Below, one piece after another: positions 15,299-58,802 of a stretch of DNA of 64,000 nucleotides. The notes beneath the pieces are model-generated. The model was not told where the DNA came from and made no database searches. It worked only from the letters and a program-made list of their open reading frames with translations. The translations under genes and the position numbers were made by a program. Position 1 is the first letter of the stretch; each line of letters begins with the position of its first letter. Source of the stretch: Bacteroidales bacterium (lineage in GTDB: Bacteria; Bacteroidota; Bacteroidia; Bacteroidales; UBA1715); contig JAZRVS010000185.1 in the NCBI GenBank assembly GCA_045599365.1, forward strand, positions 43,919-107,918. Reading direction: 5' to 3'.

Positions 15299-15341
15299 AT
15301 CTACTGAAAACTTTTTACAAAAATAACAAAAGGTTTCAATA

Positions 15342-15383
15342 CTACTGAAAACTTTTATCAAAATACGTAAAAGTTTTCAGTAG
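15342..15383. repeat. 42-bp palindromic hairpin, copy 2 (identical to 14072-14113)
   Basis: Exact 42/42 match read directly. A partial third copy (ctactgaaaactttttac) lies at 15301-15318. Confidence 0.8.
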
Positions 15384-15426
15384 AATTTGGAATAATAGAA
15401 AATTGACAGTCTCAATTTAACTTTAT

Positions 15427-26998: not shown

Positions 26999-28408
26999 AT
27001 GGAAGATAATAAGATTGTTGGTCGTCGTCGCGAGTGTTCTATTTTATCTCGTTTGCTGAAATCTACCGAGTCTGAGTTCATCGTTGTGTATGGTCGTCGC
27101 CGAGTAGGAAAGACTTTTTTCATAAATCGCTATTTTAATGACGATTTTGCTTTTAAGTTGACTGGGCTTGCTGAAAAGAATAAAGAAATGCAGTTGCAAA
27201 ATTTTGCAGATGCTTTGATTCGTTTTACAAAAACACAATTTTCAGTTCCAAAAACATGGTTCGAGGCTTTTAATCAGCTGCGGAATATGTTAGAGAATAA
27301 AAAGTCCGACAAAAAGAAGGTCGTTTTTATTGACGAATTGTCGTTTATGGATACTCCTCGTAGTGGGCTGATTACAGCATTAGAACATTTTTGGAATGAT
27401 TGGGCTAGTTCTCGTAATGACATTGTCCTTATTATTTGCTGTTCTGCAACATCGTGGATATCTAATAAAATTTTGAAAAACCATGGCGGTTTGCACAATC
27501 GTGTTACTTGTCGGTTATATATAAAACCTTTTACCTTGGCTGAAACGAAGGAGTATATTAGACATAAGGGTCTTCAAATGGAAGAGAAAGAAATTGCTGA
27601 ATGCTATATGATTATGGGTGGTATTCCGTATTATCTCAAACATTTACAAAAAGGTAAGAGTCTTGCTCAAAATATTGATTCAATTTTCTTTAGACGTAAG
27701 GAAGGCCTTGATGGTGAGTTTGAAAATTTATATGCATCGTTGTTCAAAAATTCAGAGAATTATGTAAAGGTAATAGAAGCATTGAGCAGTAAAAATAAAG
27801 GTCTAACCCGAAAGGAATTGTTGGAAAAAACGAATTTGATAGATAATGGACATTTTGCTCAAATTCTTTCTGACTTAGACGATTGCGATTTTATTCGTAA
27901 ATATAGAGGATATGGAAAAAATGAACGACAAAGCCTTTACCAGTTAACGGATTTTTATTCTTTTTTCTATTTTAAATACATAAAAAAATATAAGTCGGCG
28001 GATAAAGATTTTTGGATACACCAAATAAATACTCCTTCTTATAATGCGTGGGCTGGATATGCGTTTGAACAATTATGTCTGTATCATCATTCTCGAATAG
28101 AAAATACATTGGGAATTTCGGGAATTCAAACGGAAATTTTTGCTTGGAATGGACAACATGCTCAAATAGACCTTGTTATAAAACGTGCTGATAAGGTCAT
28201 TAATGTATGCGAAATAAAGTTTTGTGAATCAGAATTTGTAATTACAAAAAAATATCGTGACGAAATAGTAAACAAAATAAATGCTTTTCGTAGAGAGAAT
28301 AAAATTCGGTGGGCAATTCATTTGGTTATGATTACCGCTAATGGACTATACCCAACAGAATATACTTCATTGGTACAAAACGAGGTGTTTTTGTCTGATT
28401 TATTTTAA
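26999..28408 (+). CDS. AAA ATPase of the archaeal-ATPase/DUF234 type
   Basis: ...GRRRECSILSRLLKSTESEFIVVYGRRRVGKTFFINRYF (Walker A GRRRVGKT), Walker B VVFIDEL. 469 aa with the family-typical C-terminal domain. Confidence 0.75.
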   Translation: MEDNKIVGRRRECSILSRLLKSTESEFIVVYGRRRVGKTFFINRYFNDDFAFKLTGLAEKNKEMQLQNFADALIRFTKTQFSVPKTWFEAFNQLRNMLENKKSDKKKVVFIDELSFMDTPRSGLITALEHFWNDWASSRNDIVLIICCSATSWISNKILKNHGGLHNRVTCRLYIKPFTLAETKEYIRHKGLQMEEKEIAECYMIMGGIPYYLKHLQKGKSLAQNIDSIFFRRKEGLDGEFENLYASLFKNSENYVKVIEALSSKNKGLTRKELLEKTNLIDNGHFAQILSDLDDCDFIRKYRGYGKNERQSLYQLTDFYSFFYFKYIKKYKSADKDFWIHQINTPSYNAWAGYAFEQLCLYHHSRIENTLGISGIQTEIFAWNGQHAQIDLVIKRADKVINVCEIKFCESEFVITKKYRDEIVNKINAFRRENKIRWAIHLVMITANGLYPTEYTSLVQNEVFLSDLF

Positions 28409-34502: not shown

Positions 34503-34638
34503 TCGTGACCGCTCACGTTATGTGATTCTCATATGAAATTGAGCCATCGTGACCGCTCACGATGACCATTTTTTATATGAATTTAAGGCATCGTTAATGG
34601 TTACGATGACCGTTTTTTATATATACGAATTTTGACGA
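34503..34638. repeat. Three degenerate ~44-bp tandem repeats upstream of the capsule locus
   Basis: Units begin at 34503, 34547 and 34591: tcgtgaccgctcacg...tatgaaattgagcca / tcgtgaccgctcacgatgaccattttttatatgaatttaaggca / tcgttaatggttacgatgaccgttttttatatatacgaatttt. Confidence 0.7.
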
Positions 34639-34795: not shown

Positions 34796-34841
34796 AAACA
34801 TTTTTTTTCTTGCTTGTGTTACTTATTTGTGTAATATTTGA

Positions 34842-34849
34842 TATATTTG
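34842..34849 (+). promoter_or_regulatory. Candidate -7 box (TATATTTG) for the capsule-locus promoter
   Basis: Matches TAnnTTTG inside a T-rich stretch upstream of upxY. Confidence 0.3.
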
Positions 34850-34928: not shown

Positions 34929-35663
34929 ATGCTACAAAATAACATTGGCAATGCATTTGCCAAGGATAACCAGGGTGTCGATGGTGTAATTTTAACAGAT
35001 ACAAGTAGTTCATCACAATGTGCTACGTCCCCCTCTTGGTCTTGCGATTCAATAGGGCAGTCGGTAGAGTATGTGCCTCAATGGTTTGTGATACGTGCTA
35101 CTCAAGGACGTGCAGAAAAAGTTTACAAAGGTCTTATGGAATCTGTTACGACTCATGCAATTAGTGATAGTTGCGAGTTCTATCTCCCTATGGTAGCCAT
35201 ACGTCAGATTGATAAATCGAATGCGGAAAAACCAATAAGAATTGTTGTAAAACAACCTCTTGACAATAGTTTGTTGTTCGCTCATTGCACGCTTCCTCAA
35301 TTTCGTGATATTTTGCAGCTTCCTATCTCTGGACTCACTCCGTATTACGACCATACACGCCAGACGGAATATGGTCGCAATCCGTTTCTGGTAGTTCCCG
35401 ACAGCCAGTTTTTGAGTTTTCGGACTATTATCGATTCCGAGATGGAGGGTATTGTTACTGACCAAAACGATATGCCTACATTCTTCCAAGGAGATCGGGT
35501 GCGCGTGGTTGACGGACCTTTTACAGGAGTTGAAGGCTACGTGCTTCGTTACAAACACCAGCTTCGTGTGTTCGTACAATTGGATTGCCTTGGAACATTT
35601 GCAACTGCCTACGTGCCAAGAGCGTATTTGGAGAAGATGGATGATAAGACGATAAGACAATAA
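34929..35663 (+). CDS. upxY: UpxY-family (NusG-like) transcription antiterminator heading a capsular polysaccharide locus
   Basis: NGN-like start QWFVIRATQGRAEKVYKGL and a KOW motif GDRVRVVDGPFTGVEGYVLRYKHQLRVFV. The start is uncertain: ATG at 34929, or GTG at 35073 (MPQWFVIRAT...), which would give a family-typical length. Confidence 0.8.
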   Translation: MLQNNIGNAFAKDNQGVDGVILTDTSSSSQCATSPSWSCDSIGQSVEYVPQWFVIRATQGRAEKVYKGLMESVTTHAISDSCEFYLPMVAIRQIDKSNAEKPIRIVVKQPLDNSLLFAHCTLPQFRDILQLPISGLTPYYDHTRQTEYGRNPFLVVPDSQFLSFRTIIDSEMEGIVTDQNDMPTFFQGDRVRVVDGPFTGVEGYVLRYKHQLRVFVQLDCLGTFATAYVPRAYLEKMDDKTIRQ

Positions 35664-35858
35664 GTCGATGAGATGATAAGACAATAAGACAACGTGATTT
35701 GCCGACATACAGACTCGCTGACTCACCGACTTACAGACCTGTCGACATACAGACTCGCAGACTTAATAGAGGTCAACAAGACAACGAGTCAACAAGTTTT
35801 GCTAACTTGCCGACTTGTGGACTTGTAGACTTGCCGACTCAAATACTCCCCGACTTGT
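35643..35858. repeat. Phase-locked period-8 oligomer array (27 consecutive octamers, many ending in GAC)
   Basis: gataagac gataagac aataagtc gatgagat gataagac aataagac aacgtgat ttgccgac atacagac tcgctgac tcaccgac ttacagac ctgtcgac atacagac tcgcagac ... cgacttgt ggacttgt agacttgc cgactcaa atactccc cgacttgt. It begins inside the last codons of upxY. Confidence 0.85.
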
Positions 35859-35921
35859 CAAAACAGCAGGCTGAGCGAATTAGAAATTATGTACTTTAAC
35901 TAAGAAAAAACTTAAATAATT

Positions 35922-36719
35922 ATGACAGATAATACGAAATTCCAGATTATAGAAAATCTCTTGCAAGAATTTGAGAAGAAGACTGGTATGTCTCGTGAAG
36001 AGGTTGAAATGGAACTACTCAAGTTCATCACCGAAAAGAATAATTGTTCGATTTTTCAGGAGAATTCATCGGTCGAAGGTTGTAATAATGCATCTGACTA
36101 TGATATGGATAATTATCCTCATTTTTCCCTTTGTAAGAACATACAAAAGTATACTCTTCGTGTCACTCTTCATGGAATCAAACCTGCTATTTATCGTAAG
36201 GTTACGGTACCGACCAACATTACTCTTCGACACCTTTCTGAACTACTTCTGCCCCTTATGGGTTGGGAAGATTATCATATGAATCAATTCCGTAAGGGCT
36301 ACGACGTCTATAGTCCTGCCTATCAGAGAGAGTTCGATTTCCCTTCGTGGGGTGAAACTCGCAATTTTAATCAGGAGGATTATACTCTATCTGACATCCT
36401 TAGCGAGAAAGGAAAGACTATAGAGTGGGAGTATGACTTTGGTGACTCGTGGTGTCATGATATTCGCCTCTCTTCCATTGGCGAATATAGTGAAGGAGAA
36501 CCTCTAATTTCTTTTGTACAAGGAGAACGTGCGTGTCCTCCCGAAGATTGTGGCGGTGTTTGGGGATATGAGGAATTGCTACAGATATACGAGAAAAAGA
36601 AATCTGGCAAACGCCTTAGTGTTGACGAGAGGGAACACCTTAGCTATTATGATATAGATGATCCTGACTTCTTTGACTCTTCCTTCGCACACGAACTCTG
36701 CAAGAATTTTTGCGAGTGA
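35922..36719 (+). CDS. pRiA4b ORF-3-like (PRiA4_ORF3 / MM3350-like) family protein
   Basis: YTLRVTLHGIKPAIYRKVTVPTNITLRHLSELLLPLMGWEDYHMNQF...EYDFGDSWCHDIRL...CPPEDCGGVWGYEELL are hallmark motifs of this family. Confidence 0.8.
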   Translation: MTDNTKFQIIENLLQEFEKKTGMSREEVEMELLKFITEKNNCSIFQENSSVEGCNNASDYDMDNYPHFSLCKNIQKYTLRVTLHGIKPAIYRKVTVPTNITLRHLSELLLPLMGWEDYHMNQFRKGYDVYSPAYQREFDFPSWGETRNFNQEDYTLSDILSEKGKTIEWEYDFGDSWCHDIRLSSIGEYSEGEPLISFVQGERACPPEDCGGVWGYEELLQIYEKKKSGKRLSVDEREHLSYYDIDDPDFFDSSFAHELCKNFCE

Positions 36720-36823
36720 TAGACGTTTTAGAGTTTAGAGGTGTTCTTCGTTTCTTTTAATATATTGTTTTGAAAATAAATTGTACTTTCGTGGTCGCAG
36801 AATGAATTAGCAAAACATTGAAT

Positions 36824-37366
36824 ATGAGTCTCGGTTTAATTTCAAATAGACAAAAGGTAGGAGCTTTGCTCGCTTACCTCTGTGTGCGTATCCCTGATAT
36901 GCAGTTGCTGAAGATTCTTTATTTAATTGCTGAGGATTCCGTGTGTTTGCGTTCTATTCCTGTGACTTGGTTGGAGTATCAAGCATGGGAATAGGGACCT
37001 GTGGCTCATGAGGTTTATGAGGCTAAGAGTGGGGCTTTCTTTGATTACATTCAGTGCGAAAAAAAGGATGATGGCAAATGGCATGTGAATGCATTGGTGC
37101 ATCATGCGTTTCAGTTAGAGAAGGATATGCAGAAGACGAGCCAGTGGGAGAAGGAATTGATTGAGCGCATCATTGAGCGATGCAAGGACTTGTCAGCAGA
37201 TCAACTTACGGGTGAGACTCATACGTCAGACTCGCTTTGGAACAAAGTCGTAACGGAAAATAATATTGATTTTAGTCGCAATCCGAAGACTGCAATTCGT
37301 CTGTGTTTGAGTCGAGATGCGAGATTGAAAAATCGCAGTGGTTGGCACAGGCTATGTAGGTTTTAG
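36824..37366 (+). pseudogene. Panacea/DUF4065 (SocA/GepA-like antitoxin domain) gene interrupted by an in-frame TAG
   Basis: The frame starts at ATG 36824 (MSLGLISNRQKVGALLAYLCVRIPDMQLLKILYLIAEDSVCLRSIPVTWLEYQAWE), hits TAG at 36992-36994, then continues in the same frame GPVAHEVYEAK...SADQLTGETHTSDSLWNK. The stop falls exactly in the conserved aW-x-x-GPV motif. Confidence 0.65.
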
Positions 37367-37373
37367 CGGTGCA
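37329..37373 (+). pseudogene. ugd: Fossil 5' fragment of UDP-glucose 6-dehydrogenase, copy 1
   Basis: aaaatcgcagtggttggcacaggctatgtaggttttagcggtgca encodes KIAVVGTGYVGFSGA, the Rossmann N-terminus of Ugd. It has no start codon and is preceded by TGA. Confidence 0.6.
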
Positions 37374-37492
37374 AAAGCATTAGGTGTAAAAATGGAGAAG
37401 GTGGATAAAATCAATAATCGTATATAGTTATGACATATTGTACGATGTGACGGAGAAAAATTTTAGTTCAAAATAACGAATTAACATCATAT

Positions 37493-37921
37493 ATGGCCGA
37501 AAAGACCAACGAAAATAATAACATACAATTGATTGATGGCAACAACAGCCAGATAGTCATCTACACTTCTTCCGATGGCAAGGTCAATCTTGATGTGCAG
37601 ATAGATGCCGATACTGTGTGGCTTACACAACAGCAGATAGCTCAACTCTATGGCAAGGCGGTTTCCACCATCAACGAGCATATCAAAAATATTTTGGAAG
37701 AAGAAGAGTTGAAAGAGGATGTGTGTGTAAAGAAATTCGGAATTTCCGAATTTCAGCAGAAAACCCCATTCTACTATAATCTCAGCATGATAATATCGGT
37801 TGGTTATCGTGTCCGTTCCAAGCAAGGAACACTCTTCCGCCAGTGGGCAACAAAGCGTCTTGAGGAAGCCATCATGAACGAGGAAAACGTGCCTCTTGAT
37901 TATCGTGATGATTGTGCATAA
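37493..37921 (+). pseudogene. RhuM-family protein, N-terminal ~140 aa only (C-terminally truncated)
   Basis: ...VWLTQQQIAQLYGKAVSTINEHIKNILEEEEL...FYYNLSMIISVGYRVRSKQGTLFRQWATKRLEE matches the RhuM N-terminal region. The ORF stops at the first bases of the 99-bp repeat. Confidence 0.65.
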
Positions 37922-38014
37922 ATCTTATGTGATGGTTATGTGATTAGAAGTGTTAAACATTACGTAATTGATTGAAAATCAATAATTATTTTATGTGATG
38001 GTTATGTGATTAAG
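37916..38014. repeat. 99-bp direct repeat, copy 1
   Basis: gcataaatcttatgtgatggttatgtgattagaagtgttaaacattacgtaattgattgaaaatcaataattattttatgtgatggttatgtgattaag. It contains ttatgtgatggttatgtgatta twice around a short palindrome attgattgaaaatcaat. Confidence 0.85.
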
Positions 38015-38056
38015 TTGTATAGAGAGGTGACGTTTAAGTGTAAATAATTTAGTAGC

Positions 38057-39508
38057 ATGAATGATAAAGAACTCCAAAATATATTAGCCGATATTCAAGC
38101 TTCTTCTAAGGAATGTGAATGGATAGAGTTAAAGCATAACAATTGGAAACCAGAACTTATCGGTGAGTATGTATCTGCTCTTTCTAATGGAGCAGCATAT
38201 ATGGGGCAATCAAAGGCTTATCTTGCTTTTGGTCTAAATGATGAAACTCATGCTATTGAAGGAACTAATTTTGACCCACAAAAATTAAAAATAGGAAATC
38301 AAGAGTTGGAAAATTGGATTGCGACTCAACTCACACCACGAATTGATTTTTCTTTTCATGAATTAATAACAAACCAGGGGCGAGTAGTAATTATAATAAT
38401 AGATTCGGCGGGAAATACCCCGGTGAAGTTTCGTGGAGAAAGTTACATTCGAGTTGGCTCATATAAGAAACCTCTTGCAGAACATCCTGAACGAGAACGA
38501 AAAATATGGCAAAATACTTTACATAGTAGTTTTGAAACAAAAATAGCAAAGGTTGGAGTGTCAGAAGATCAAGTCCTTAATTTAATAGATTATCCTACCG
38601 CATTTCGGCTTCTAAACATCCCATTGCCAGAGAATCGTACAGCAATAATTGATAAATTACAAGAGGAGCAATTTGTAGTTAAACGTCCATCTTGTTATGA
38701 TATTACTAATCTTGGAGCAATACTTTTTGCTAATAAATTGTCAGATTTTATTACTCTCAAGCGTAAGGCCGTTCGTCTTATCTTTTACAAAGAAGAAGAC
38801 CGTATAAATGCAATTCGTGAAGTGTACATTGATAAGGGATACGCAATAGGATTTGAAGGTTTGATTCAAAATATATCGGATAATCTTCCTTCTAATGAGC
38901 AAATAGGAAAGGTCTTTCGTCAAGACATACCAATCTATCCACCTTTAGCTATACGTGAATTTGTTGCGAATGCATTGATTCATCAAGATTTTTCTTTGGG
39001 AGGTTCTGCGCCAATGATAGAAATATTTAAGTGTCGTATAGAAATTACAAATCCAGGTAACCCACTTATAGATACTCTTCGGTTTATTGATCATGCTCCT
39101 CTTAGCAGAAATGAATTATTGGCATCTACAATGCGTAGAATGCGGTTTTGTGAGGAACGAGGAAGTGGTATTGATCGTGCATTAGCACAATGTGAATTGC
39201 ATCAGTTGCCAGCGCCCTCCTTTTTTAAAGATGATTTATTTACCAAGGTTACAATGTTTGCTCCAAAAACTCTTCGTCAAATGAATTCAGAAGATAAAAT
39301 AAGAGCTTGCTATCAGCATTGTTGTTTGCAGTATGTTGCTGGCAAAAAGATGACTAATGAATCTTTTCGAGATCGTTTAGGAATTGAGCCACAAAATTAC
39401 TCAACTGCATCCCGTATTATTTCGGATACTATAGATGCTAAATTTGTAAAACCTTATTCGGAGAGTCAGTCTAAGAAATACGCTCAGTATATTCCTATAT
39501 GGGCATAA
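38057..39508 (+). CDS. AlbA_2 (Schlafen-like divergent AAA) + HATPase_c_4 domain protein, 'putative DNA-binding/RecG-like transcriptional regulator' family
   Basis: N-terminus ...ECEWIELKHNNWKPELIGEYVSALSNGAAYMGQSKAYLAFGLNDETHAIEGTNF is typical of AlbA_2. The central REFVANALIHQDF... is typical of the HATPase_c_4 part. 483 aa. Confidence 0.75.
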   Translation: MNDKELQNILADIQASSKECEWIELKHNNWKPELIGEYVSALSNGAAYMGQSKAYLAFGLNDETHAIEGTNFDPQKLKIGNQELENWIATQLTPRIDFSFHELITNQGRVVIIIIDSAGNTPVKFRGESYIRVGSYKKPLAEHPERERKIWQNTLHSSFETKIAKVGVSEDQVLNLIDYPTAFRLLNIPLPENRTAIIDKLQEEQFVVKRPSCYDITNLGAILFANKLSDFITLKRKAVRLIFYKEEDRINAIREVYIDKGYAIGFEGLIQNISDNLPSNEQIGKVFRQDIPIYPPLAIREFVANALIHQDFSLGGSAPMIEIFKCRIEITNPGNPLIDTLRFIDHAPLSRNELLASTMRRMRFCEERGSGIDRALAQCELHQLPAPSFFKDDLFTKVTMFAPKTLRQMNSEDKIRACYQHCCLQYVAGKKMTNESFRDRLGIEPQNYSTASRIISDTIDAKFVKPYSESQSKKYAQYIPIWA

Positions 39509-39601
39509 ATCTTATGTGATGGTTATGTGATTAGAAGTATTAAATATTGTGTAATTAATTGAAAATCAATGATTATTTTATGTGATGGTTATGTGATTAA
39601 G
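39503..39601. repeat. 99-bp direct repeat, copy 2
   Basis: gcataaatcttatgtgatggttatgtgattagaagtattaaatattgtgtaattaattgaaaatcaatgattattttatgtgatggttatgtgattaag. A few substitutions relative to copy 1. Confidence 0.85.
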
Positions 39602-39696
39602 CAAATAAAATTCATTATTTTGTTCTATGGTAGATAACCAAGAATGACAGTTAAGCATAATGGTCAACAAAAACGAAGGAATATTTATTATATACA

Positions 39697-39786
39697 ATGA
39701 CATCGTTTGAAAATATTAAAATTGCAGTAGCTGGCACAGGCTATGTAGGTCTTAGCATCGCTACATTCATTCAAATGAAAATATAA
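39697..39786 (+). pseudogene. ugd: Fossil 5' fragment of UDP-glucose 6-dehydrogenase, copy 2 (29 codons)
   Basis: MTSFENIKIAVAGTGYVGLSIATFIQMKI-stop. Confidence 0.7.
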
Positions 39787-39809
39787 AATTTATCAACCTA
39801 CATCGTGTT

Positions 39810-40025
39810 ATGAATATCAGAGATATATCACAATACATTGTGGCGCTTATAGCTGAATTTGCAAAGCGCTATCAGCTCACAGATCGACAGGCAGCTCGCT
39901 ACCTTAGCCGCTACCATGCTCTTGAAATGTGCCAAAAACACTATGGCTTCATGCACACTCAATCTTTCGAGTCCAATATCGCTGACCTTGCTGCCTATTG
40001 TCAGCGAATGGGTGGACAACTATAG
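39810..40025 (+). CDS. DUF3791-family small protein
   Basis: 71 aa. MNIRDISQYIVALIAEFAKRYQLTDRQAARYLSRYHALEMCQKHYGFMHTQSFE... matches my recollection of DUF3791. Confidence 0.65.
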   Translation: MNIRDISQYIVALIAEFAKRYQLTDRQAARYLSRYHALEMCQKHYGFMHTQSFESNIADLAAYCQRMGGQL

Positions 40026-40039
40026 TACAAATATCAACA

Positions 40040-40519
40040 ATGATACTCTATCACGGATCAAATACAAGCATTGACAACATAGACTTGACTCGATGCAACA
40101 GGTACAAAGACTTCGGACAAGCCTTCTACCTCACTACCGATCTTAAACAAGCAGAGGAGGTTGCTAAGGCAAGGACTGAATTCTTCGGAGGGGAACCAGT
40201 GATCAACACTTACGAGTTTGATGAAACACTACTTACCGATGGCTCTCTCGCCTTTCAGTCCTTCCCATCCTATACTGATGAGTGGACAGAATTCGTCTTT
40301 AATCACCGTGATGAAACCAACGTGCCACCTCACATGCATAATTTTGACATTGTCTATGGACCTATAGCCAACGATCGTGTGGGCATGCAAGTGCGAAACT
40401 ACCGTCAAGGCTACATTACACTCGAAGAATTTCGCAGAAGACTACAATACATGAAAGGCGAAACTTACCAGTATGCCTTCTGCACTACACGTGCCATATC
40501 AAAACTTCGCAAGTTATGA
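40040..40519 (+). CDS. DUF3990-family protein
   Basis: MILYHGSNTSIDNIDLTRCNRYKDFGQAFYLTTDLKQAEE... ATG at 40040 is preferred over the longer ORF-track start. Overlaps the next gene by 4 nt (ATGA). Confidence 0.7.
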   Translation: MILYHGSNTSIDNIDLTRCNRYKDFGQAFYLTTDLKQAEEVAKARTEFFGGEPVINTYEFDETLLTDGSLAFQSFPSYTDEWTEFVFNHRDETNVPPHMHNFDIVYGPIANDRVGMQVRNYRQGYITLEEFRRRLQYMKGETYQYAFCTTRAISKLRKL

Positions 40520-40752
40520 CTATGCATATTTCACTCGAGGAGTTTCGCTTCATGATCGAAGACATTACCTCCGACCTCATACAGATGCTCATCGAGCGCG
40601 AAGGCTACACCCTTCCTCAAGCCGTGGATGCCGTTTATAATTCCGACATCTATGCTGCCTACATCCGTCCTGAAACTGCCCTCTATTACCAGTCATCTAG
40701 TTATATCTACGAGTACCTTCTCCGCGAACTCCGTACCGGCAAACTGCAGTAA
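40516..40752 (+). CDS. Second DUF3791-like small protein
   Basis: 78 aa. ...FMIEDITSDLIQMLIEREGYTLPQAVDAVYNSDIYAAYIRPETALYYQSSSYIYEYL. Translationally coupled to the DUF3990 gene. Confidence 0.6.
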   Translation: MTMHISLEEFRFMIEDITSDLIQMLIEREGYTLPQAVDAVYNSDIYAAYIRPETALYYQSSSYIYEYLLRELRTGKLQ

Positions 40753-40777
40753 AGAATATAAATACACAAAAACATAT

Positions 40778-40924
40778 ATGAACACTTCATTTCAAGATCT
40801 AAAAATCGCAGTAGCTGGTACAGGCTATGTTGGTTTGTCTATAGCAACCTTGCTTGCACAACATCATATGGAGACCCGCAAAATGAACCTTGCTGAATTC
40901 TTGGAGAAGGAGATTGTGAAATAA
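40778..40924 (+). pseudogene. ugd: Fossil 5' fragment of UDP-glucose 6-dehydrogenase, copy 3 (48 codons)
   Basis: MNTSFQDLKIAVAGTGYVGLSIATLLAQHH followed by unrelated residues and a stop. A full-length Ugd would be roughly 400 aa or more. Confidence 0.7.
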
Positions 40925-41005
40925 ATATGATCAAGGGTATAAAATACGAAATTATTATTAAGTATAATGTGCAATAGGTTGATGATAAAAAGATAGTTTA
41001 AATTT

Positions 41006-42202
41006 ATGAATAACAAATTAATCACAGTAACTAGTCCATTACTTCCCAATCTTGATGAGTTCCACGAGATGCTGCAGCAAATCTGGGACTCCAAGTGGAT
41101 TACCAACAACGGTCAGTTTCACAAACAACTGGAAGCTGCTCTTGCGGAGTATCTCAAGGTGCCTTACATCAGCCTCTTCACCAACGGAACCTTGCCTCTG
41201 CTTACGGCTCTTCAGGCACTTAGAATCACTGGCGAAGTAATCACTACACCTTATAGTTTTGTTGCAACGACTCATTCTATCTGGTGGAACGGATGCAAAC
41301 CAGTGTTTGTGGATATTGATCCTAAAACGGGAAATCTTGAACCAAATAAGATTGAGGCTGCCATCACTCCTCGTACCACGGCTATTATGCCTGTTCACTG
41401 CTATGGCAAACCTTGTGACGTGCGCGCCATCAAGGAAATTGCGGACAAATACGGACTGAAAGTCATCTACGATGCAGCTCACGCATTTGCTCTGGAGATT
41501 CCTAAGTATGAGACGGATTATAAAGTTGCATTCGATGAGGCAACTAATGTACTTGCTCCTTCAAAGGCGACAAAACATGTGGAAGTTGAGACTGAGTCAA
41601 TTTTGAACTGGGGTGACATCAGCACTTTGAGCTTCCATGCCACCAAGGTCTATAACACCATCGAAGGTGGTGCAATGATAATGCAAGATGCCGAAACCAA
41701 GAAACGTATCGATTACCTCAAGAACTTTGGCTTTGCAGGTGAGACTACAGTCATTGGTCCTGGTATCAATAGCAAGGTGGATGAGATGCGTGCAGCATAT
41801 GGTCTTCTTAACTTGAAGCAGGTGGATCAGGCAATTGCCAATCGCCAGAAGGTGGCTAATGCCTATCGTGAAGCTCTTAGAGGCATAGAAGGAATCACCT
41901 TCTTCGAGGACATGCCTGGAGTCAAGCACAACTACAGTTACTTCCCTATGTTCATCGATGCAGAGAAATACGGCACAACCCGTGACGAGCTGTACTTCAA
42001 GATGAAAGAGGCGAATGTCCTTGGCAGGCGTTATTTCTATCCTCTTATATCTGAGTTCTCTACTTACAGAGGATTAGAAAGTGCGAATCCTGCGAACTTG
42101 CCTAACGCTCGCAAGATGGCAGATAGTGTAATTTGTCTGCCTATGCATCATGAGCTTTCAGATAACGACATAGAACGTACTCTCGCATTCTTAAAAAAAT
42201 AA
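41006..42202 (+). CDS. DegT/DnrJ/EryC1/StrS-family sugar aminotransferase
   Basis: ...FHKQLEAALAEYLKVPYISLFTNGTLPL..., DAAHAF, SFHATKVYNTIEGGAMI (PLP-lysine region), ...VICLPMHHELS. Carries ~25 extra residues between the DAAH and SFH motifs. Confidence 0.85.
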   Translation: MNNKLITVTSPLLPNLDEFHEMLQQIWDSKWITNNGQFHKQLEAALAEYLKVPYISLFTNGTLPLLTALQALRITGEVITTPYSFVATTHSIWWNGCKPVFVDIDPKTGNLEPNKIEAAITPRTTAIMPVHCYGKPCDVRAIKEIADKYGLKVIYDAAHAFALEIPKYETDYKVAFDEATNVLAPSKATKHVEVETESILNWGDISTLSFHATKVYNTIEGGAMIMQDAETKKRIDYLKNFGFAGETTVIGPGINSKVDEMRAAYGLLNLKQVDQAIANRQKVANAYREALRGIEGITFFEDMPGVKHNYSYFPMFIDAEKYGTTRDELYFKMKEANVLGRRYFYPLISEFSTYRGLESANPANLPNARKMADSVICLPMHHELSDNDIERTLAFLKK

Positions 42203-42220
42203 ATCATAGAACATTAAAGT

Positions 42221-43381
42221 ATGCAAAAGTTTATAGTAAAAAATCTTGGTCCAATACAAAATACGAGTATTGACATAGGCGATTTGACCATCCTCATAGG
42301 AACACAGGCCAGTGGCAAGAGCCTCCTCCTTCAGATGTTTAAGCTTGCCAAGGATCGTAAGTCCATAATGAAACGTCTGGATAATTATGGCTTTATTGTT
42401 AAATCCAATGCTGACAATCTTTTGAACAGATATCTGGGCGATGGTCTGGCTACCATGTGGCAAGACGACACCGAAATAAACGATAATGGCAATCATTATA
42501 CATCAAAGGAATCGCTTATTAAGAATCCGACAAACAGCATTGTCGATAAAGTCTTCTATGTACCGGCACAACGCATCCTTAGCATAGCAGACGGTAGGCC
42601 CAAAAATTTCATGGAATTTGGTGAGAGCGATCCCTATGTTCTGCGTTCCTTCAGCGAAACGCTACGATTGTTTGCGCATGGAGGCATGGGGGGAAGTAAT
42701 GTAATCTATCCACTCAAGAATCGACTGAAGGGTTCTGTTAAGAAGATGTTCAATGAGACAATCTTTCACGATGGTAAGGTTGTAATGGAAGAAATAGCCG
42801 GTCAACGAAAGATAGCCATGGATATCAATGGAATGCGGTTGCCTCTTATGACATGGAGTGCAGGACAAAAGGAGTTTTTGCCATTGCTTATGGCATTCTA
42901 TTGTCTCTCCGGACCTGTTCAAAATGTTATCAACCCACGGCAATATGAATATGTCATCATAGAGGAACCGGAAATGGGCTTACACCCACTCGCTATTCAG
43001 ACTATCATTCTTGAGATTATAGAACTTATTCACAATGGCTACAAGGTAATTGTCAGTACGCATTCACCAGTTCTTCTCGAGTTTGCCTGGGTACTGAGTG
43101 CCCTCAGAGGAATACTGGCCTCAAAGCGCCTTGATGCTCTTTCTGAACTTTTCCGTCTTTCACCACATAGCAATACCAAGGAGATATTAACTGATATCTA
43201 CGAAAAGAATGTCAAAACATATTACTTTTCACGAAAGGAAGACAAAGTCGTATCTACCGATATCTCATCACTTGATGTTATGAGCGACAATGTTGATATT
43301 ACCGAATGGGGTGGATTGACACAGTTTTCTACATTAGCAAATGATGTTGTTTCAAAATATATAGCTAAATATGGCGAATAA
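42221..43381 (+). CDS. ABC-type (AAA_21/AAA_15-like) ATPase, stand-alone, defence-associated class
   Basis: Walker A GTQASGKS, ABC-signature-like WSAGQKE, Walker B YVIIEEPEMGLHP, H-loop VSTHSP. 386 aa with no TM or transporter partner. Confidence 0.8.
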   Translation: MQKFIVKNLGPIQNTSIDIGDLTILIGTQASGKSLLLQMFKLAKDRKSIMKRLDNYGFIVKSNADNLLNRYLGDGLATMWQDDTEINDNGNHYTSKESLIKNPTNSIVDKVFYVPAQRILSIADGRPKNFMEFGESDPYVLRSFSETLRLFAHGGMGGSNVIYPLKNRLKGSVKKMFNETIFHDGKVVMEEIAGQRKIAMDINGMRLPLMTWSAGQKEFLPLLMAFYCLSGPVQNVINPRQYEYVIIEEPEMGLHPLAIQTIILEIIELIHNGYKVIVSTHSPVLLEFAWVLSALRGILASKRLDALSELFRLSPHSNTKEILTDIYEKNVKTYYFSRKEDKVVSTDISSLDVMSDNVDITEWGGLTQFSTLANDVVSKYIAKYGE

Positions 43382-43835
43382 CAAGAAATCTGCATTTCAA
43401 GAAGCAGTAGAAAACACACCTGAAGTGAAGGCTGGATATTGTAGCGGATTAAAGGCAGTAAAGGGTTCCGACCGTTCCAAGATTGTTTCTTCCAAAACCC
43501 TTCTTATTAACGGTAGTCTTGACATAGACTCGTGTGTAAAGGGAATCTATCCAAAGGAAAACAGATGGGATTATGCTATATCCTATAACGATGAAATCAC
43601 CTTTCTTGAGATTCACCCTGCATACGACAAGGAAATCGTGGTCCTGCAGAGAAAGTTGAGTTGGCTGAAGGCATGGCTAAAGTCAAAAGCTCCTCTCATC
43701 AATGCTCTTCCCATGTCTGATAAGCCCTTCTGTTGGGTACCTTCTGGCGAGAATGGATTTTTATCTACATCCGTTTCAAGAAAGAAGATAGCCTTGTTGG
43801 GAATATCCTACGAGAACCGACTGATATTAAGATAG
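43371..43835 (+). CDS. Hypothetical 154-aa protein, translationally coupled partner of the ATPase
   Basis: Its start overlaps the ATPase stop by 11 nt (aaatATGgcgaaTAA). I recognise no family. Possible nuclease-like D...D...ExH spacing (LDIDSC / RWDYAI / FLEIHPA). Confidence 0.55.
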   Translation: MANNKKSAFQEAVENTPEVKAGYCSGLKAVKGSDRSKIVSSKTLLINGSLDIDSCVKGIYPKENRWDYAISYNDEITFLEIHPAYDKEIVVLQRKLSWLKAWLKSKAPLINALPMSDKPFCWVPSGENGFLSTSVSRKKIALLGISYENRLILR

Positions 43836-43846
43836 TAAAAAATAAA

Positions 43847-44026
43847 ATGAATGTGCTCAATAACCCACTCACCTCAGAGTTCTCGACCTACAGAGGATTA
43901 GATTCAGCAAAACCTGAGAATCTCCCGAATGCTCACAAGATGGCGGATAGCGTTATCTGCTTGCCTATGCATCATGAGCTTTCACAGGAAGACATAGAGC
44001 GGATACTGAATTTGATACTTAAGTAA
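43847..44026 (+). pseudogene. Duplicated 3' end of a degT-type aminotransferase gene
   Basis: MNVLNNPLTSEFSTYRGLDSAKPENLPNAHKMADSVICLPMHHELSQEDIERILNLILK parallels the C-terminus of the intact gene (NVLGRRYFYPLISEFSTYRGLESANPANLPNARKMADSVICLPMHHELSDNDIERTLAFLKK, ~42014-42202). Confidence 0.8.
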
Positions 44027-44052
44027 AATGTGAATAAATAAAACTGAATAAA

Positions 44053-44952
44053 ATGAACAAGAACATGCAAGAAACAAGAGATTTCCTCAAGAGCATTGGA
44101 ATGCCAGAAGGAGATCTTTATTCACTTCCTACTTCAGAGAAGCGTTTCCCTGATGGTGGTCAGTACCGCTTCGAGGTTCCTGGAATTCAGGGTCCTGGCC
44201 CTATGAAGGCACTCTTGGAACAACTTGATGAGTATGGCATCCAGATTCATCGCGTAACACAAACAAAGGGTATCATGTTCCTTACCGATGAAGAAATCAA
44301 GCAGATGGTGGCATTGGCAGAGAAGTATCACGTACAGTTGGTACTTGCTTGTGGCCCTCGTGCTACAACCGATACTTCTGCATCAGTAAAGACCGAAGAA
44401 GGCCAGCGTATGGGTTATCGTCTTCGTGGTCAGGAACAGATAGTTCGTGGATTTGAAGAAATCAGACGTGGAGCTCGCCTCGGTGTTCGTGGATTCCTTA
44501 TTTATGATGAGGGTTTGCTTTATGCTCTTAATGAAGCGCGCAAGTCCGGCTTCATACCGGCAGACTGCCACTTCAAGATTTCTGCTCATTCAGGTCACGG
44601 AAATCCGTGTTCCGCCCATGTGCTTGAGTCATTGGGTGCCAACAGCATCAACCCTATTCGCGACATCCAGATTCAGATGCTTGCCGCAATGCGTGCCGCT
44701 ATTGACGTGCCTATCGATCTGCATACCGAGAATCCTAAATCCAGTGGTGGTTTTATCCGTCACTACGAGGTTCCGGAGTTTGTACGTGTAGCTGCTCCTG
44801 TCTATCTGAAGACCGGTGGATCTGTTGCTGCTAATCACAGTTATGATACCACTGAGAAGGAGGCAAAGCAGAGGGCAAAGCAGATTCTGCTGGTAAAGAG
44901 AGTGCTGGACGAGTATTATCCTGATGCAGTTGTGTCTCCAAAATTAAAGTAA
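44053..44952 (+). CDS. Hypothetical enzyme-like protein (family not recognised; alternating pattern suggests a barrel-type fold)
   Basis: 299-aa ORF tightly packed with the downstream genes. No motif I can name. Confidence 0.5.
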   Translation: MNKNMQETRDFLKSIGMPEGDLYSLPTSEKRFPDGGQYRFEVPGIQGPGPMKALLEQLDEYGIQIHRVTQTKGIMFLTDEEIKQMVALAEKYHVQLVLACGPRATTDTSASVKTEEGQRMGYRLRGQEQIVRGFEEIRRGARLGVRGFLIYDEGLLYALNEARKSGFIPADCHFKISAHSGHGNPCSAHVLESLGANSINPIRDIQIQMLAAMRAAIDVPIDLHTENPKSSGGFIRHYEVPEFVRVAAPVYLKTGGSVAANHSYDTTEKEAKQRAKQILLVKRVLDEYYPDAVVSPKLK

Positions 44953-44953
44953 C

Positions 44954-46189
44954 ATGGAAAGCAAACCTGTTGCTGTCGTTCTTGGCGGAACAAGTCCACA
45001 TGTTATCCTTACTCAAAAACTAAAACAAAGAGGGTATTATGTGGTACTTGTAGATTACTTGGATAATCCCCCAGCCAAGAGGGTGGCAGATGAGCACATA
45101 CAGGCAAGTACTCTAGACCAAGAAAAAGTACTTGATATTGCTGGCCATAAGAATGCTTCTTTAGTAATCAGCACATGTATTGACCAGGCTAATAGCGTAT
45201 GTTGCTATGTTGCTGAGAAATTAGGCTTGCCACATCCGTATAGTTATAAAACATCATTAGATGTAACTGACAAGGGCTTGATGAAGAAGATAATGACTGA
45301 TAATGGTATTCCGACTTCTTCATACACATTGTCAGATTCCATTGATAATATTGATTGGAACAAGGTCTTATATCCTGCGGTTGTGAAGCCAGTTGATTGT
45401 AACAGTTCCAAGGGTGTTCGTAGGGTGGATTCTGAAGAAGAAACTAAACTCAGAGTTAAGGAGGCTCTTGAACTTAGCAGAACGCACATGGCGATTATCG
45501 AAGGATTCAACCAAGGCGAAGAGATTCAAGTTGATTGTGTCTCCACTAATGATGGCGTTAAAGTTGTCCTGACTAGACAGAAAAAGAAGATAAAAGGGAA
45601 GTGCAACCAGATGGTTCTTAATTCTACAGGCTCCATTCTCCCTGCTCCTCTCAATGAACAATTGAACAGGCAGGCGCAAGAGATTGCTGAAAAGATTGCA
45701 ACATCATTTGGACTGCACAATACTCCTTTCTTTTATCAGGCAATTGTTACAGACAAAGGGATTCAAGTCCTTGAGTTCGCACCTCGGATAGGAGGCGGAT
45801 TAAGTTACTATGTAATTAAGGAACTTGCTGGATTTGATGTCGTTGAAGCTGCTATTGACTCTTTTATGGGTAATGATATCGTTTTCAATGGAAAGTCTCT
45901 TGACAAGTGTTACTCGACGAATCTGCTATATATGCGTCCTGGGGTTTTTGACCACATAGAAGGACTTAATGAACTCAAAGAACTTGGCGTAGCGACAGAA
46001 GTCTTTGTTATGAAAAACAAAGGAACTGAAGTTGATGGTGATATGAGAAGTTCCAATAGAGTTGCAGCATTTGTGTTGTCTGCAAATAGTTATGATGAAT
46101 TAAAGACTAAGGAAAAGAAAGCAATTGAGAGTGTTGAAATTATAGACGAGGCAGGTGCTCCTCTCTTAAATCGTTCCATTTATGATTAA
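44954..46189 (+). CDS. ATP-grasp ligase (1 of 4)
   Basis: Pre-ATP-grasp Rossmann-like N-terminus (VAVVLGGTSPHVILTQKLKQRGYYVVLVD), then ...DKGLMKKIMTDNGIPT...YPAVVKPVDCNSSKGV.... Confidence 0.8.
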   Translation: MESKPVAVVLGGTSPHVILTQKLKQRGYYVVLVDYLDNPPAKRVADEHIQASTLDQEKVLDIAGHKNASLVISTCIDQANSVCCYVAEKLGLPHPYSYKTSLDVTDKGLMKKIMTDNGIPTSSYTLSDSIDNIDWNKVLYPAVVKPVDCNSSKGVRRVDSEEETKLRVKEALELSRTHMAIIEGFNQGEEIQVDCVSTNDGVKVVLTRQKKKIKGKCNQMVLNSTGSILPAPLNEQLNRQAQEIAEKIATSFGLHNTPFFYQAIVTDKGIQVLEFAPRIGGGLSYYVIKELAGFDVVEAAIDSFMGNDIVFNGKSLDKCYSTNLLYMRPGVFDHIEGLNELKELGVATEVFVMKNKGTEVDGDMRSSNRVAAFVLSANSYDELKTKEKKAIESVEIIDEAGAPLLNRSIYD

Positions 46190-46197
46190 CAATTAAT

Positions 46198-47337
46198 ATG
46201 ATACATCATCAATATAACCCCAGTTACAAGTTTGTTAAGGCACCAGTTGACTTTAACAAATACACAGATCGCGAATTGCTACAATATTGTCTTGGAGCAA
46301 CAATGTATATGCCTGGAACAAAAGATTTTGCACAGGCAGTAATTGACAGGAAGTATCCTGGACTGACCTCTATGGTTATGTGCTTTGAGGATGCTTGTAA
46401 GTTGGAAGACGTTCCTGCTGCCGAACTCAATAGTATCCATGTGCTCGACACCTTGGCTGATGCTGTAGATAACGGCACATTGAAGTATGAGGATATTCCT
46501 CTTATTTTTTTCCGTGTGCGTTCGGTTGAGCAATTCAAACACTTTGCGTCCATGCTCAAGCCTCGTCACATCAAGTTTCTGTGCGGTTTCAATTTTCCCA
46601 AGTTCAACAGCATCACGGCAGCTCCTTATATGGAGCACTTGGTTGAGTTGAATGCAAAGTTCGGTGAGATAATATATGGCATGCCAATCATCGAAGACTC
46701 TCGTGTTGCATACAAAGAGACGCGTCTGCTTGAACTTATGGCCATAAAGAATGTTTGTGACTGCCACAAGAAACTCATTCTAAATGTACGTGTCGGTGGA
46801 ACCGACTTCAGTAGCTGTTTTGGTGTCCGTAGAGGTATCAACTATACTATTTATGACATAATGACCGTAAGTAACTGCCTGATGGATATCCTCAATGTGT
46901 TCACCAGAAACAATGACTATACAGTCAGTGGGCCAGTATGGGAATATTTCAAGGCTAACAAGAGCATGAAGAATATGGAAGAACTGCCTAAGGTTGATCT
47001 TCAGCAAACCCTTCTGAAACGTAAAGCCGTAGTCAACGATGCTGTTGATGGACTGATGCGCGAACTTGTGCTTGATCAGGCAAATGGCTTCATGGGCAAG
47101 ACCTGCATCCATCCGACACACCTTAACTACATTAACGGAATGTTGGCTGTCACGAAAGATGAATACGATGACGCATATCAGATTATGCACACATCAGGTG
47201 GTGTGATAAAGGGCAGCAAGGGCATGAATGAAATTGGACCACACAAGAATTGGGCTCAGCGTATTTTGATGCGTGCCGAAGCTTATGGTGTCATTGAGAA
47301 CGATGCTAGTTATATTGATTTATTTGGAGTAAAATAA
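46198..47337 (+). CDS. HpcH/HpaI aldolase / citrate-lyase beta (CitE)-like family protein
   Basis: ...SMVMCFEDA... and ...GFMGKTCIHPTHL... resemble the CitE/HpcH acidic and IHP motifs. 379 aa with an N-terminal extension. Confidence 0.65.
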   Translation: MIHHQYNPSYKFVKAPVDFNKYTDRELLQYCLGATMYMPGTKDFAQAVIDRKYPGLTSMVMCFEDACKLEDVPAAELNSIHVLDTLADAVDNGTLKYEDIPLIFFRVRSVEQFKHFASMLKPRHIKFLCGFNFPKFNSITAAPYMEHLVELNAKFGEIIYGMPIIEDSRVAYKETRLLELMAIKNVCDCHKKLILNVRVGGTDFSSCFGVRRGINYTIYDIMTVSNCLMDILNVFTRNNDYTVSGPVWEYFKANKSMKNMEELPKVDLQQTLLKRKAVVNDAVDGLMRELVLDQANGFMGKTCIHPTHLNYINGMLAVTKDEYDDAYQIMHTSGGVIKGSKGMNEIGPHKNWAQRILMRAEAYGVIENDASYIDLFGVK

Positions 47338-52399: not shown

Positions 52400-52432
52400 T
52401 TGAATGTTGAATGATTATAGTTGAATGAAATT

Positions 52433-52822
52433 ATGGATGATAAATCAAACATATTTGCGTATCGTAAGTTGAATGTTTACCACAAGGCAAAGGAATGGAT
52501 TAAGGATGTTTATTCCTTGATTGAGAAATTTCCTCCTGTTGAGAGGTATGCATTGGCTGATCAAGTAAGACGTGCTTCATTTTCTGTAACATCAAATATT
52601 GCAGAAGGTTCTTCAAGAAGTTCCAGAAAAGAAGAGGCACATTTCATAGAAATGTCATTCGGCTCTCTAATGGAAGTGCAATCTCAACTTGAGATAGCTC
52701 AAACTCTTGGTTATCTCTCACAATCCGACATAGATCTGATTGATGAAAAGACAGTGGTAATTGCAAAGATGTTATCTGGTTTAAAATCTCCTTTATTAAA
52801 AGAAAATCAAAATGGAAAATAA
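52433..52822 (+). CDS. Four-helix-bundle protein (23S rRNA intervening-sequence protein family)
   Basis: ...YRKLNVYHKAKEWIKDVYSLIEKFPPVERYALADQVRRASFSVTSNIAEGSSRSS..EAHFIEMSFGSLMEVQSQLEIA is a family hallmark. ATG at 52433 is preferred over the TTG at 52421. Confidence 0.8.
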   Translation: MDDKSNIFAYRKLNVYHKAKEWIKDVYSLIEKFPPVERYALADQVRRASFSVTSNIAEGSSRSSRKEEAHFIEMSFGSLMEVQSQLEIAQTLGYLSQSDIDLIDEKTVVIAKMLSGLKSPLLKENQNGK

Positions 52823-57793: not shown

Positions 57794-58802
57794 CTATAAT
57801 TATCTAGGAAATTTAGACAGCTAATAAAGATAAAAAAATAATAAATTAGCTGTATGAAAAGTAAAAGGAAATTTAGTTCAGAGTTTAAGGCCAAGGTAGC
57901 TATCGAAGTTCTCAAAGAACAGTCAATGTTGTCGGAATTGGCGACGAAGTATCAATTGACTCCCAACCAAATATCTCAATGGAAGAAAGAGTTTTTGGTA
58001 AAAGCCCCGCAAGTGTTTTCAATGAAGCCCCCGGAGAAATCCCATGAGGATGAAGTAAACGCGCTATATAAGAAAATAGGCGAGTTGCAAATAGCGAATG
58101 ATTTTCTAAAAAAAAGTTGTCGTGACCTTCAACAGTACCGAACGTATGAGGTTGTTGGAAACAGGAAACAAAAAGTTAAGTGTGAGCAAACAATGCCTAT
58201 CCCTGCTCCAGGAAACGAGACCTATCCGTACCTGCTTCGAAACATGCGGATAGACCGCGTGAACAAGGTCTGGGAAATGGACATAACCTATCTTCCTATG
58301 AAGCGTGGCTTTATGTACCTTGCTGCGATAATCGACGTGTATAGCAGATGTATCGTCGGTTGGGACATATCAAACACGATGGAGTCCGAATGGTGCAGCT
58401 CTATCGTGTCGCAGGCTATCGAAAGGCATGGAAGCCCCGAGGTTTTTAACACAGATCAGGGTAGCCAGTTTACGAGCAAGGTGTTTACCGAAAACCTAAA
58501 GGGCCATAATGTGAAAATCAGTATGGACGGACGTGGAAGGGCAACCGACGACATCTATATTGAAAGATTTTGGAGAAGCATCAAATACGAAGACTTTCAT
58601 ATAAATGTCTATGATACACCCCAAGACCTAAGGAAAGGTGTGGCAGACTACATCTATTTTTACAATAATGTTAGGCCGCATCAGTCGTTACAGTATCAAA
58701 GACCAATTTCTGTTTTTAAAGTTATTGCGTAACAAAGAAAATCTTGATGGATTTATCATTAACTAAGCAAAAAAGTTGTCTAAATTTACTGGAGTATTAT
58801 AG
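57794..58802 (+). mobile_element. IS3-family insertion sequence, internally deleted (~1.0 kb)
   Basis: Imperfect terminal inverted repeats: ctataattatctaggaaatttagacag (57794-57820) versus the reverse complement of gttgtctaaatttactggagtattatag (58775-58802). OrfA-type HTH N-terminus, an A8 slippery run at 58108-58115 and an rve DDE core. Confidence 0.75.
57854..58732 (+). pseudogene. IS3 transposase remnant (OrfA and the rve domain joined by an internal deletion)
   Basis: After the A8 run the -1 frame reads ...KKLSVSKQCLSLLQ (typical OrfB start) and then stops. The rve core (YPYLLRN...VWEMDITY...AAIIDVYSR...FNTDQGSQFTS...) is back in the OrfA frame. This implies loss of the ~60-100 aa OrfB N-terminal region around 58210-58222. 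Confidence 0.7.

Follow-up and report, generated by a model that had tools for sequence, protein, structure and literature searches.

Stacked candidate defence cassettes between duplicated gene ends in a UpxY-led Bacteroidales capsule operon

In a 64-kb stretch of the Bacteroidales bacterium contig JAZRVS010000185.1 (hereafter the window, to which unprefixed coordinates refer), a long plus-strand polysaccharide operon is headed by a UpxY-like paralogue of NusG. The 8.4-kb interval between this gene, upxY, and the conserved capsule module that begins at 44053 holds four blocks of cargo genes, every one co-directional with the operon, and three of the four match candidate families in PADLOC (PDC-S05, PDC-M13 and PDC-M56). 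Pieces of the capsule genes ugd and degT found in this interval are genuine gene-end fossils located at cassette boundaries. Comparison with loci from relatives (denoted L001, L002 and so on) suggests that the cassettes are gained and lost by recombination at gene ends, with no recombinase nearby. We put at about even the chance that the stretch from upxY to the capsule module is a hot spot of cassette turnover in which cassettes move by single homologous crossover.

Results

Four cargo blocks follow upxY

A reading made earlier from the sequence alone (the sequence-only reading) had described four co-directional cargo blocks after upxY, and Pfam gene content bears this out; G+C content varies among the blocks from 35.5% to 45.1%. 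Block 1 opens with a PRiA4_ORF3-family gene (35922–36719, plus strand; Pfam E = 4.9e-44), whose protein matches the hypothetical protein of PDB entry 2i1s (E = 7.6e-25) and has no PADLOC match. Next comes a pseudogene of the SocA-like antitoxin Panacea (36818–37322, plus strand; Pfam SocA_Panacea E = 7e-4, below cut-off). Its remnant reading frame, 36818–37366, contains a single in-frame TAG at 36992–36994, and its 3′ end is replaced by the first of three ugd fossils. Block 1 does not hold an intact Panacea antitoxin next to a toxin, the arrangement of the type II PanA/Panacea pair (PMC8832971). Block 2 consists of an N-terminal fragment of a RhuM-family gene (37493–37921, plus strand; PADLOC PDC-S05, E = 1.4e-42, residues 18–129; Pfam RhuM match limited to profile positions 17–57 of 252) and a gene with AlbA_2 and HATPase_c_4 domains (38057–39508, plus strand; Pfam E = 1.7e-21 and 1.1e-16; G+C 35.5%), for whose product PADLOC returned weak matches only.

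Block 3 is a three-gene cassette, hereafter the triad, identified by Pfam and PADLOC as PDC-M13 (39810–40752, plus strand). It comprises a DUF3791 gene (39810–40025), a DUF3990 gene (40040–40519), whose family is placed in the Pfam ADP-ribosyltransferase clan (PMC7955679), and a 78-aa gene; the best PADLOC matches are M13A (3e-16), M13B (4e-43) and M13C (2e-13). The triad had first been read as DUF3791-DUF3990-DUF3791. The first two assignments hold, and the third does not: that gene has neither a Pfam DUF3791 match nor BLASTP similarity to the first gene, and it matches small PDC-M13 subunits. Block 4 is an AAA_21/AAA_15 ATPase gene (42221–43381) that overlaps the gene of a 154-aa partner (43371–43835) by 11 nt. 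Together (42221–43835, plus strand) they match PADLOC PDC-M56 A/B, both at full length (PDC-M56A, E = 1.4e-153, residues 1–382 against profile positions 1–379 of 382; PDC-M56B, E = 7.4e-47, 3–148 of 151).

The PADLOC search of the array found candidate families only and no experimentally validated defence system. PDB sequence searches with the 154-aa partner, the PRiA4_ORF3 protein and the AlbA_2 protein gave no functional lead, a scan of viral contigs with the PDC-M56 ATPase was empty, and Rfam had no match anywhere in the window.

From these family matches we infer that the cargo may be defence genes. The same genes could instead be regulators or accessory factors of capsule production, for example winged helix-turn-helix (wHTH) or AlbA_2 proteins and ATPases, a reading in keeping with the AlbA_2 and PRiA4_ORF3 genes, which have no convincing PADLOC match, with the tight, co-directional packing of all cargo in the operon, and with the recurrence of similar ATPase_2 genes in related capsular polysaccharide (CPS) operons. 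We consider it quite unlikely, given the matches of triad, RhuM fragment and ATPase pair (the last, PDC-M56, at full length) to candidate families that owe their definition to association with defence islands, the inactivation of two of the genes, and the existence of orthologous operons without cargo. The triad is also found outside capsule loci, beside other such genes. A 68%-identical triad in L008–L017 lies in non-capsule contexts without a ugd piece, so the triad is not tied to ugd, and in the nearest other triad copies (78% nucleotide identity) homology runs exactly from start to stop codon, 39808–40752, between unrelated flanks. In relatives whose UpxY is 62–80% identical the array is missing, upxY being followed directly by rfb genes, ugd or a flippase gene; the array is thus specific to this lineage.

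Block 4 lies between two degT ends and is absent from an empty site

Block 4 was said to be bracketed by the real 3′ end of degT and a diverged second copy of it, and alignment agrees. The intact degT aminotransferase gene (41006–42202, plus strand; Pfam E = 1.5e-93) supplies copy A, and a second degT 3′ end, copy B (43850–44026, plus strand; Pfam DegT E = 2.4e-6), lies beyond the ATPase pair; positions 42041–42177 and 43865–44001 are 77% identical over 137 nt and contain a 23-nt identical core. The copies differ by 23 synonymous and 9 non-synonymous changes. The low ratio of non-synonymous to synonymous change (pN/pS 0.11) indicates that the 5′ part of copy B is a piece of another working degT allele and not a decayed local duplicate.

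The comparator locus L030 has the gene order flippase, degT, 299-aa gene and carries no ATPase pair. Its degT aligns to window 41006–42179 at 79%, and L030 2726–6197, from 162 nt before the degT stop, runs co-linear and unbroken with window 43865–47335. Relative to L030, the window has a 1824-bp insertion, equal to the spacing of the degT copies, which holds PDC-M56 A and B: in L030 the site of block 4 stands empty. Compared position by position, the L030 sequence follows copy A as far as about 42177 and copy B from about 44002 onwards, and the last 8 codons of the window degT (from ~42178) differ from those of the L030 degT. The 5′ part of copy A joined to the tail of copy B gives the protein end ELSDNDIE-RILNLILK, exactly the L030 C-terminus, and the 5′ part of copy B joined to the tail of copy A gives a second coherent C-terminus, ELSQEDIE-RTLAFLKK. 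This geometry of truncated copy, cassette and intact copy, with reciprocally mosaic arms, is exactly the product that a single crossover yields.

Two other histories were considered. Local duplication followed by decay was rejected, both for the degT copies and for ugd fossils 2 and 3 (below), as the differences are almost all synonymous. A single replacement event that left ugd fossil 3 and degT copy B as its two scars was dropped as sole explanation because L030 confines the block 4 insertion to ~42178–44001 and the 5′ part of copy B is a foreign functional allele.

Three ugd fossils and a direct repeat mark the other boundaries

Searched by tblastn with two full-length Ugd proteins from relatives, the window gave matches only at 40748–40870 (E = 6e-13), 39664–39780 (E = 1.6e-7) and 37317–37424 (E = 6e-5), and a 30-nt degenerate ugd pattern occurs at exactly three sites against 0 expected. 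No full-length ugd was found in the 64 kb by this search, as expected from the earlier claim that no ugd piece continues into a complete gene. That the pieces match Ugd far above chance also stands, with the first in need of redrawing. Fossil 1 (37317–37424, plus strand) extends to 37424, spans codons ~8–60 with an internal deletion, lacks a start codon and is decayed, with 5–6 non-synonymous changes within a 48-nt core.

Fossil 2 (39664–39780, plus strand) comprises the upstream region, an ATG at 39697 and about 25 codons; it differs from the intact ugd of L034 by 2 synonymous changes in the 48-nt core, and its distal 30 nt are common to L034, as part of a unit with the triad. Fossil 3 (40766–40870, plus strand) has its ATG at 40778 and is truncated after 30 codons. 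Fossils 2 and 3 differ by 11 synonymous and 0 non-synonymous changes. Judged by these substitutions, fossil 3 is from a different ugd allele than fossil 2, and the repeat arms in general are from different functional alleles; differences that are almost all synonymous indicate origins in separate working alleles, which is what cassettes carrying along part of a conserved gene would show. The frame past fossil 3 runs for 18 more codons (METRKMNLAEFLEKEIVK, 40871–40927) before degT; this tail may be another gene-end fossil.

The AlbA_2 gene inside block 2 is bracketed by repeat R, a 99-nt direct repeat with 94% identity between copy 1, from the stop codon of the RhuM fragment (37916–38014, plus strand), and copy 2, from the AlbA_2 stop codon (39503–39601, plus strand). 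The 22-mer TTATGTGATGGTTATGTGATTA, a tandem of two 11-mers, occurs twice per copy (37925–37946, 37991–38012, 39512–39533 and 39578–39599), which makes 4 matches in the window against 0.01 expected.

The same 22-mer has 7 exact matches in IMG/VR phage contigs (L023–L029). In the five contigs inspected (L023, L025, L026, L027 and L028/L029) it is intergenic or overlaps a stop codon, in the orientation opposite to the genes, and it is kept exactly across phage contigs despite mostly unrelated flanks (those of L028 and L029 are common to both).

Every fossil lies at a cassette boundary, with gaps of 14–38 nt, and blocks 2–4, like the AlbA_2 gene inside block 2, have a short local operon piece on both sides (ugd 5′, degT 3′ or intergenic repeat). 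Of the sequence-only reading of these gene ends, the part that makes them genuine fossils at cassette boundaries holds; their proposed role as homology arms is read from geometry only and is put forward here as a candidate role.

Cassette content varies among relatives at a conserved position

Content at the conserved position varies between the window and L001, L002, L004, L007, L018, L030 and L034, and where the earlier reading called for a comparison of relatives, the comparators support cassette turnover with breakpoints at the fossils (the empty site in L030; a break at the ugd start in L034). L034, from an independent sample and assembly, carries in order an 8-nt periodic tract, an ATPase_2 cassette, a second tract, a ugd fossil, the triad and a full-length ugd, with the tracts at 1–59 and 1481–1547, one on each side of the ATPase_2 cassette. 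Window 39741–40783 is 97.1% identical to L034, identity over the next 80 aligned columns, inside ugd, is 75% (Fisher p = 9e-12), and homology is nil after 40860, where the window ugd is truncated. With the triad 97% alike but ugd diverged, a unit of fossil plus triad precedes different ugd alleles in the window and in L034.

Direct repeats of 28–190 nt flank the cassettes of relatives. The triad of L034 stands between ugd repeats of 28 nt. L001 has an ATPase_2 cassette (PDC-S27) between 53-nt direct repeats, made of the last rfbD codons plus a hairpin, and, between ~190-nt repeats, a DUF4325 and HATPase_c_2 gene pair that interrupts the fossil of a winged-helix gene lying upstream of ugd; L001 16259–16560 is the C-terminal winged-helix part of this regulator-like gene, split by the insertion. 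In L018, repeats flank a DUF1016/YhcG cassette (PDC-S02), and a 42-codon glmS 5′ fossil (2563–2691) lies between that cassette and rfbA. The DUF4325 gene recurs in the window as a 3′-end fossil (35859–35892, plus strand), 34 nt that are 97% identical to L001 15281–15314, where the gene is intact. Counting window and relatives, the PADLOC candidate families among the cargo are PDC-S05, M13, M56, S02 and S27.

The closest relative, L003 (88% UpxY identity), has the same upstream synteny, and its contig ends in the tract after upxY. Metagenome scans with UpxY, by single sequence and by alignment, gave no match; a genome scan gave only two distant loci, and exact-protein look-ups of DegT and of the upstream 142-aa gene gave no match.

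These comparisons bear on whether the array is real. The array could be an assembly chimera of a metagenome-derived genome: the source is an NCBI contig of an uncultured lineage, and related contigs often break in this region. We give such an artefact almost no credence: the repeats are too diverged (73–94%) to mislead an assembler, the independent assembly L034 reproduces the order fossil 2, triad, ugd start at 97%, and L030 reproduces the continuity from degT copy B into the downstream genes.

They also bear on whether the gene ends had any part in capture. Illegitimate joins and deletions during capsule-locus exchange could have remodelled the 5′ part of the operon several times and left passive scars, the cassettes having simply come along. 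Many unrelated scars would suit this (the DUF4325 fossil, the Panacea nonsense codon, the truncated RhuM gene, the truncated ugd, the 18-codon tail and the L018 glmS fossil), as would the decay of fossil 1 and the absence of flanking repeats at block 1. Passive scarring does not, however, predict direct local repeats around blocks 2–4 plus four cassettes in three independent relatives, nor a reciprocal mosaic that keeps degT intact, nor arms drawn from other functional alleles, and we regard it as rather improbable.

No recombinase domain was found among the open reading frames scanned from 9.6 to 57.8 kb. The earlier statement that the interval holds no recombinase stands, with one addition: an IS3-family transposase gene (HTH_Tnp_1 plus rve, 57854–58732) lies in the same operon, right after the flippase gene and 14 kb downstream of the array. 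The inserts could nevertheless be very small integrative elements that depend on a site-specific recombinase from another part of the genome, with the duplicated gene ends as att sites and each element bringing a replacement gene end, as many islands at tRNA genes or gene ends do. Bacteroidales genomes encode many tyrosine recombinases, direct repeats flank inserts that leave the target intact (degT here, ugd in L034), and each pair has a short identical core, such as the 23 nt in degT. Against such an enzyme, neither the array nor the 20 kb upstream encodes one, and the repeats have very different lengths, no common motif and at least five unrelated targets (ugd 5′, degT 3′, repeat R, rfbD 3′, and an intergenic or wHTH fossil). 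One enzyme would not account for all of these, and at least five unrelated sequences without a common motif argue against one site-specific system; we judge the explanation unlikely.

The operon frame and probable co-transcription of the cargo

The gene at the head of the operon (34929–35663, plus strand) is provisionally assigned to the UpxY family by NCBIfam antiterm_UpxY, with a score of 90.8 bits, just short of the cut-off of 100, and by synteny; Pfam NusG and KOW matches are weak and below their cut-offs. Its start at 34929 was chosen from the long N-terminus conserved across relatives. Orthologues with 73–88% identity occupy the same operon-first position in CPS operons of relatives. Neither upxZ nor a sugar gene directly follows upxY, as first read and as gene content confirms, and upxZ is likewise absent as second gene in L001, L002, L004 and L007. 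Downstream of the array, the conserved capsule module begins with the 299-aa, ATP-grasp and C-C bond lyase genes (44053–47337, plus strand) and has thousands of homologues at 80–98% identity. The glycan run as a whole (DegT, ATP-grasp, C-C lyase, dehydrogenase, acyltransferase and flippase) is on the plus strand to ~57.8 kb and beyond.

A candidate Bacteroides-type promoter (TTTG ... TAtaTTTG; 34822–34849, plus strand) lies ~80 nt upstream of upxY, found by motif scan as a consensus match only. Neither the inverted repeats typical of an invertible promoter nor a local invertase was found around it. Between the upstream housekeeping genes and this promoter region stand two tandem 44-nt units (34503–34622), each a terminator-like hairpin with a T run.

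Directly after upxY lies an 8-nt periodic tract with a central imperfect hairpin (35643–35860, plus strand), whose units include GATAAGAC, GTCAACAA and CTTGTGGA. Its folding compared with shuffled sequences is not significant (z-score −1.67). A similar tract follows upxY in L003 (10730–11131), the contig ending inside it. The tract may serve as an RNA element or mark a junction prone to recombination.

UpxY proteins are antitermination factors for whole CPS operons (PMC11685472). In the window, gaps between cargo genes within the array range from −11 to 188 nt, following a 258-nt gap after upxY. No terminator enrichment was found on the plus strand of the array, and a motif scan found no TAnnTTTG in its intergenic gaps; a sigma-70 promoter scan was at background level, the sigma-70 consensus not being applicable to Bacteroidota. 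The shared orientation, the short gaps and the lack of terminator enrichment or promoter motif fit read-through from the upxY promoter, and on these sequence features the cassettes are probably transcribed within the UpxY-antiterminated operon.

Other features of the window

Within the capsule operon, a 23S_rRNA_IVP or bAvd-like four-helix-bundle gene (52421–52822) stands between two fumarase-subunit genes; it is present in L030 (10045–10434) and L033 (7335–7622) and absent in L032. Further candidate defence genes lie outside the operon, within 14120–16374 and 26999–28408. They are an AAA_14/DUF4143 ATPase gene (PDC-S01, E = 1e-117) adjoining an N6/N4 DNA methylase gene, and an ATPase_2 gene (PDC-S27, E = 1e-194), whose family also supplies the cassette embedded in relatives' capsule operons. 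On the minus strand, a stop-free frame of at least 2925 codons (1–8775) leaves the left edge of the window, as part of a very large gene.

Discussion

How the array may have been built

The turnover we propose would draw on small modules that have no recognisable promoter, enter in operon orientation and come from the wider stock of genes that accompany defence islands. Such a cassette, on circular or looped-out DNA and joined to a piece of a conserved gene, would recombine into the resident gene, and a single crossover would leave it between an intact gene copy and a truncated fossil. Through these repeats the cassette could also loop out again. Repeated rounds plus deletions could have built the present array, one deletion having taken away the ugd body. 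For Bacteroides, transfer of large chromosomal segments with subsequent homologous replacement has been documented (PMC5729914).

Several points weigh against turnover by single crossover. The circular intermediate is hypothetical, and homologous recombination is itself a conjecture drawn from the geometry. The arms are short (28–190 nt) and diverged (77–94% identity), with longest identical runs of ~20–23 nt, and would be a poor RecA substrate. Block 1 has no clear flanking repeat, and the 23S_rRNA_IVP gene is polymorphic without any duplication, so gene-end duplication is not universal. The defence labels are those of candidate families only, with Panacea present as a pseudogene and RhuM as a fragment. 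No same-species comparator was found, the contig of the closest relative breaking right after upxY.

A broader generalisation is possible and, to our minds, doubtful: that some Bacteroidales capsule operons are recombinase-free, integron-like platforms. Promoterless defence cassettes, each with a piece of a conserved gene (ugd 5′, degT 3′ or rfbD 3′), would then enter and leave by RecA-dependent single crossover via circles, and immunity would be co-switched with the capsule and shuffled between capsule loci and strains.

What such an arrangement would mean

In gut Bacteroidales, the chief barrier to phage adsorption is the type of capsule. If intracellular defence genes ride in capsule operons, they would be expressed jointly with the surface defence, which would change the interpretation of phage-resistance phenotypes in capsule variants. 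The movement of chromosomal defence genes is not yet explained for defence islands, and the flanking gene-end repeats offer a testable route for movement without a recombinase of their own. They also provide a signature by which more cassettes could be searched for, namely a duplicated gene end flanking a non-glycan gene of a CPS operon.

Comparison with known systems

That defence genes gather in hot spots with conserved genes on either side is well established. Like the islands and hot spots of the E. coli pan-genome (PMC10121019), the array has variable genes, here of candidate defence type, between conserved genes, presence or absence among relatives and heterogeneous G+C content. Unlike them, it lies inside a single antiterminated biosynthetic operon with all cargo in operon orientation, has no mobile-element genes, and has conserved flanks that are partly duplicated at each insertion.

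The sequence-only reading knew of no description of this architecture, which is true in part. Yan et al. (2022) reported, in the sections of their paper considered here, resistance genes captured directly behind upxY in Bacteroidales glycan operons with invertible promoters (PMC8748976). As in that case, non-glycan accessory genes stand right behind upxY (there, expressed from the glycan-operon promoter), and glycan genes next to them have degenerated or become fused (upxY, wecA). The array differs in that its cargo is candidate defence or toxin-antitoxin genes, several cassettes are stacked, and no invertible promoter or local invertase was found. Duplicated gene ends flank the cassettes here, a feature that those sections do not describe. 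Our literature searches returned no description of stacked candidate defence or toxin-antitoxin cassettes in a UpxY-led capsule operon, nor of a consistent duplicated gene-end signature with arms from other functional alleles.

Integron arrays likewise have a platform promoter followed by compact, co-directional cassettes that lack a promoter motif and are gained or lost singly. Here there is no IntI, attI or attC, and the boundaries are pieces of host genes that differ from cassette to cassette. An inverted-repeat search found no attC-type imperfect palindromes at cassette ends; repeat R stands behind two genes only, and its 22-mers are direct rather than inverted.

Tandem genomic islands at tRNA genes or gene ends resemble the array in that fossil gene ends separate the inserts and the target gene stays functional. 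Those islands encode or depend on an integrase and use one fixed att core, whereas the array involves several unrelated targets and its cassettes encode cargo genes only, with no cognate integrase.

Campbell-type single-crossover integration is familiar from suicide plasmids, and IS26 translocatable units build arrays separated by direct copies of IS26. The present array has no vector backbone or insertion sequence element, its arms are short, diverged pieces of capsule genes, and its circle is hypothetical. Like the products of Campbell-type and IS26 events, it has the order truncated target copy, insert, intact copy, from which the insert could be excised again, and in both, repeated rounds would give arrays separated by copies of the repeat.

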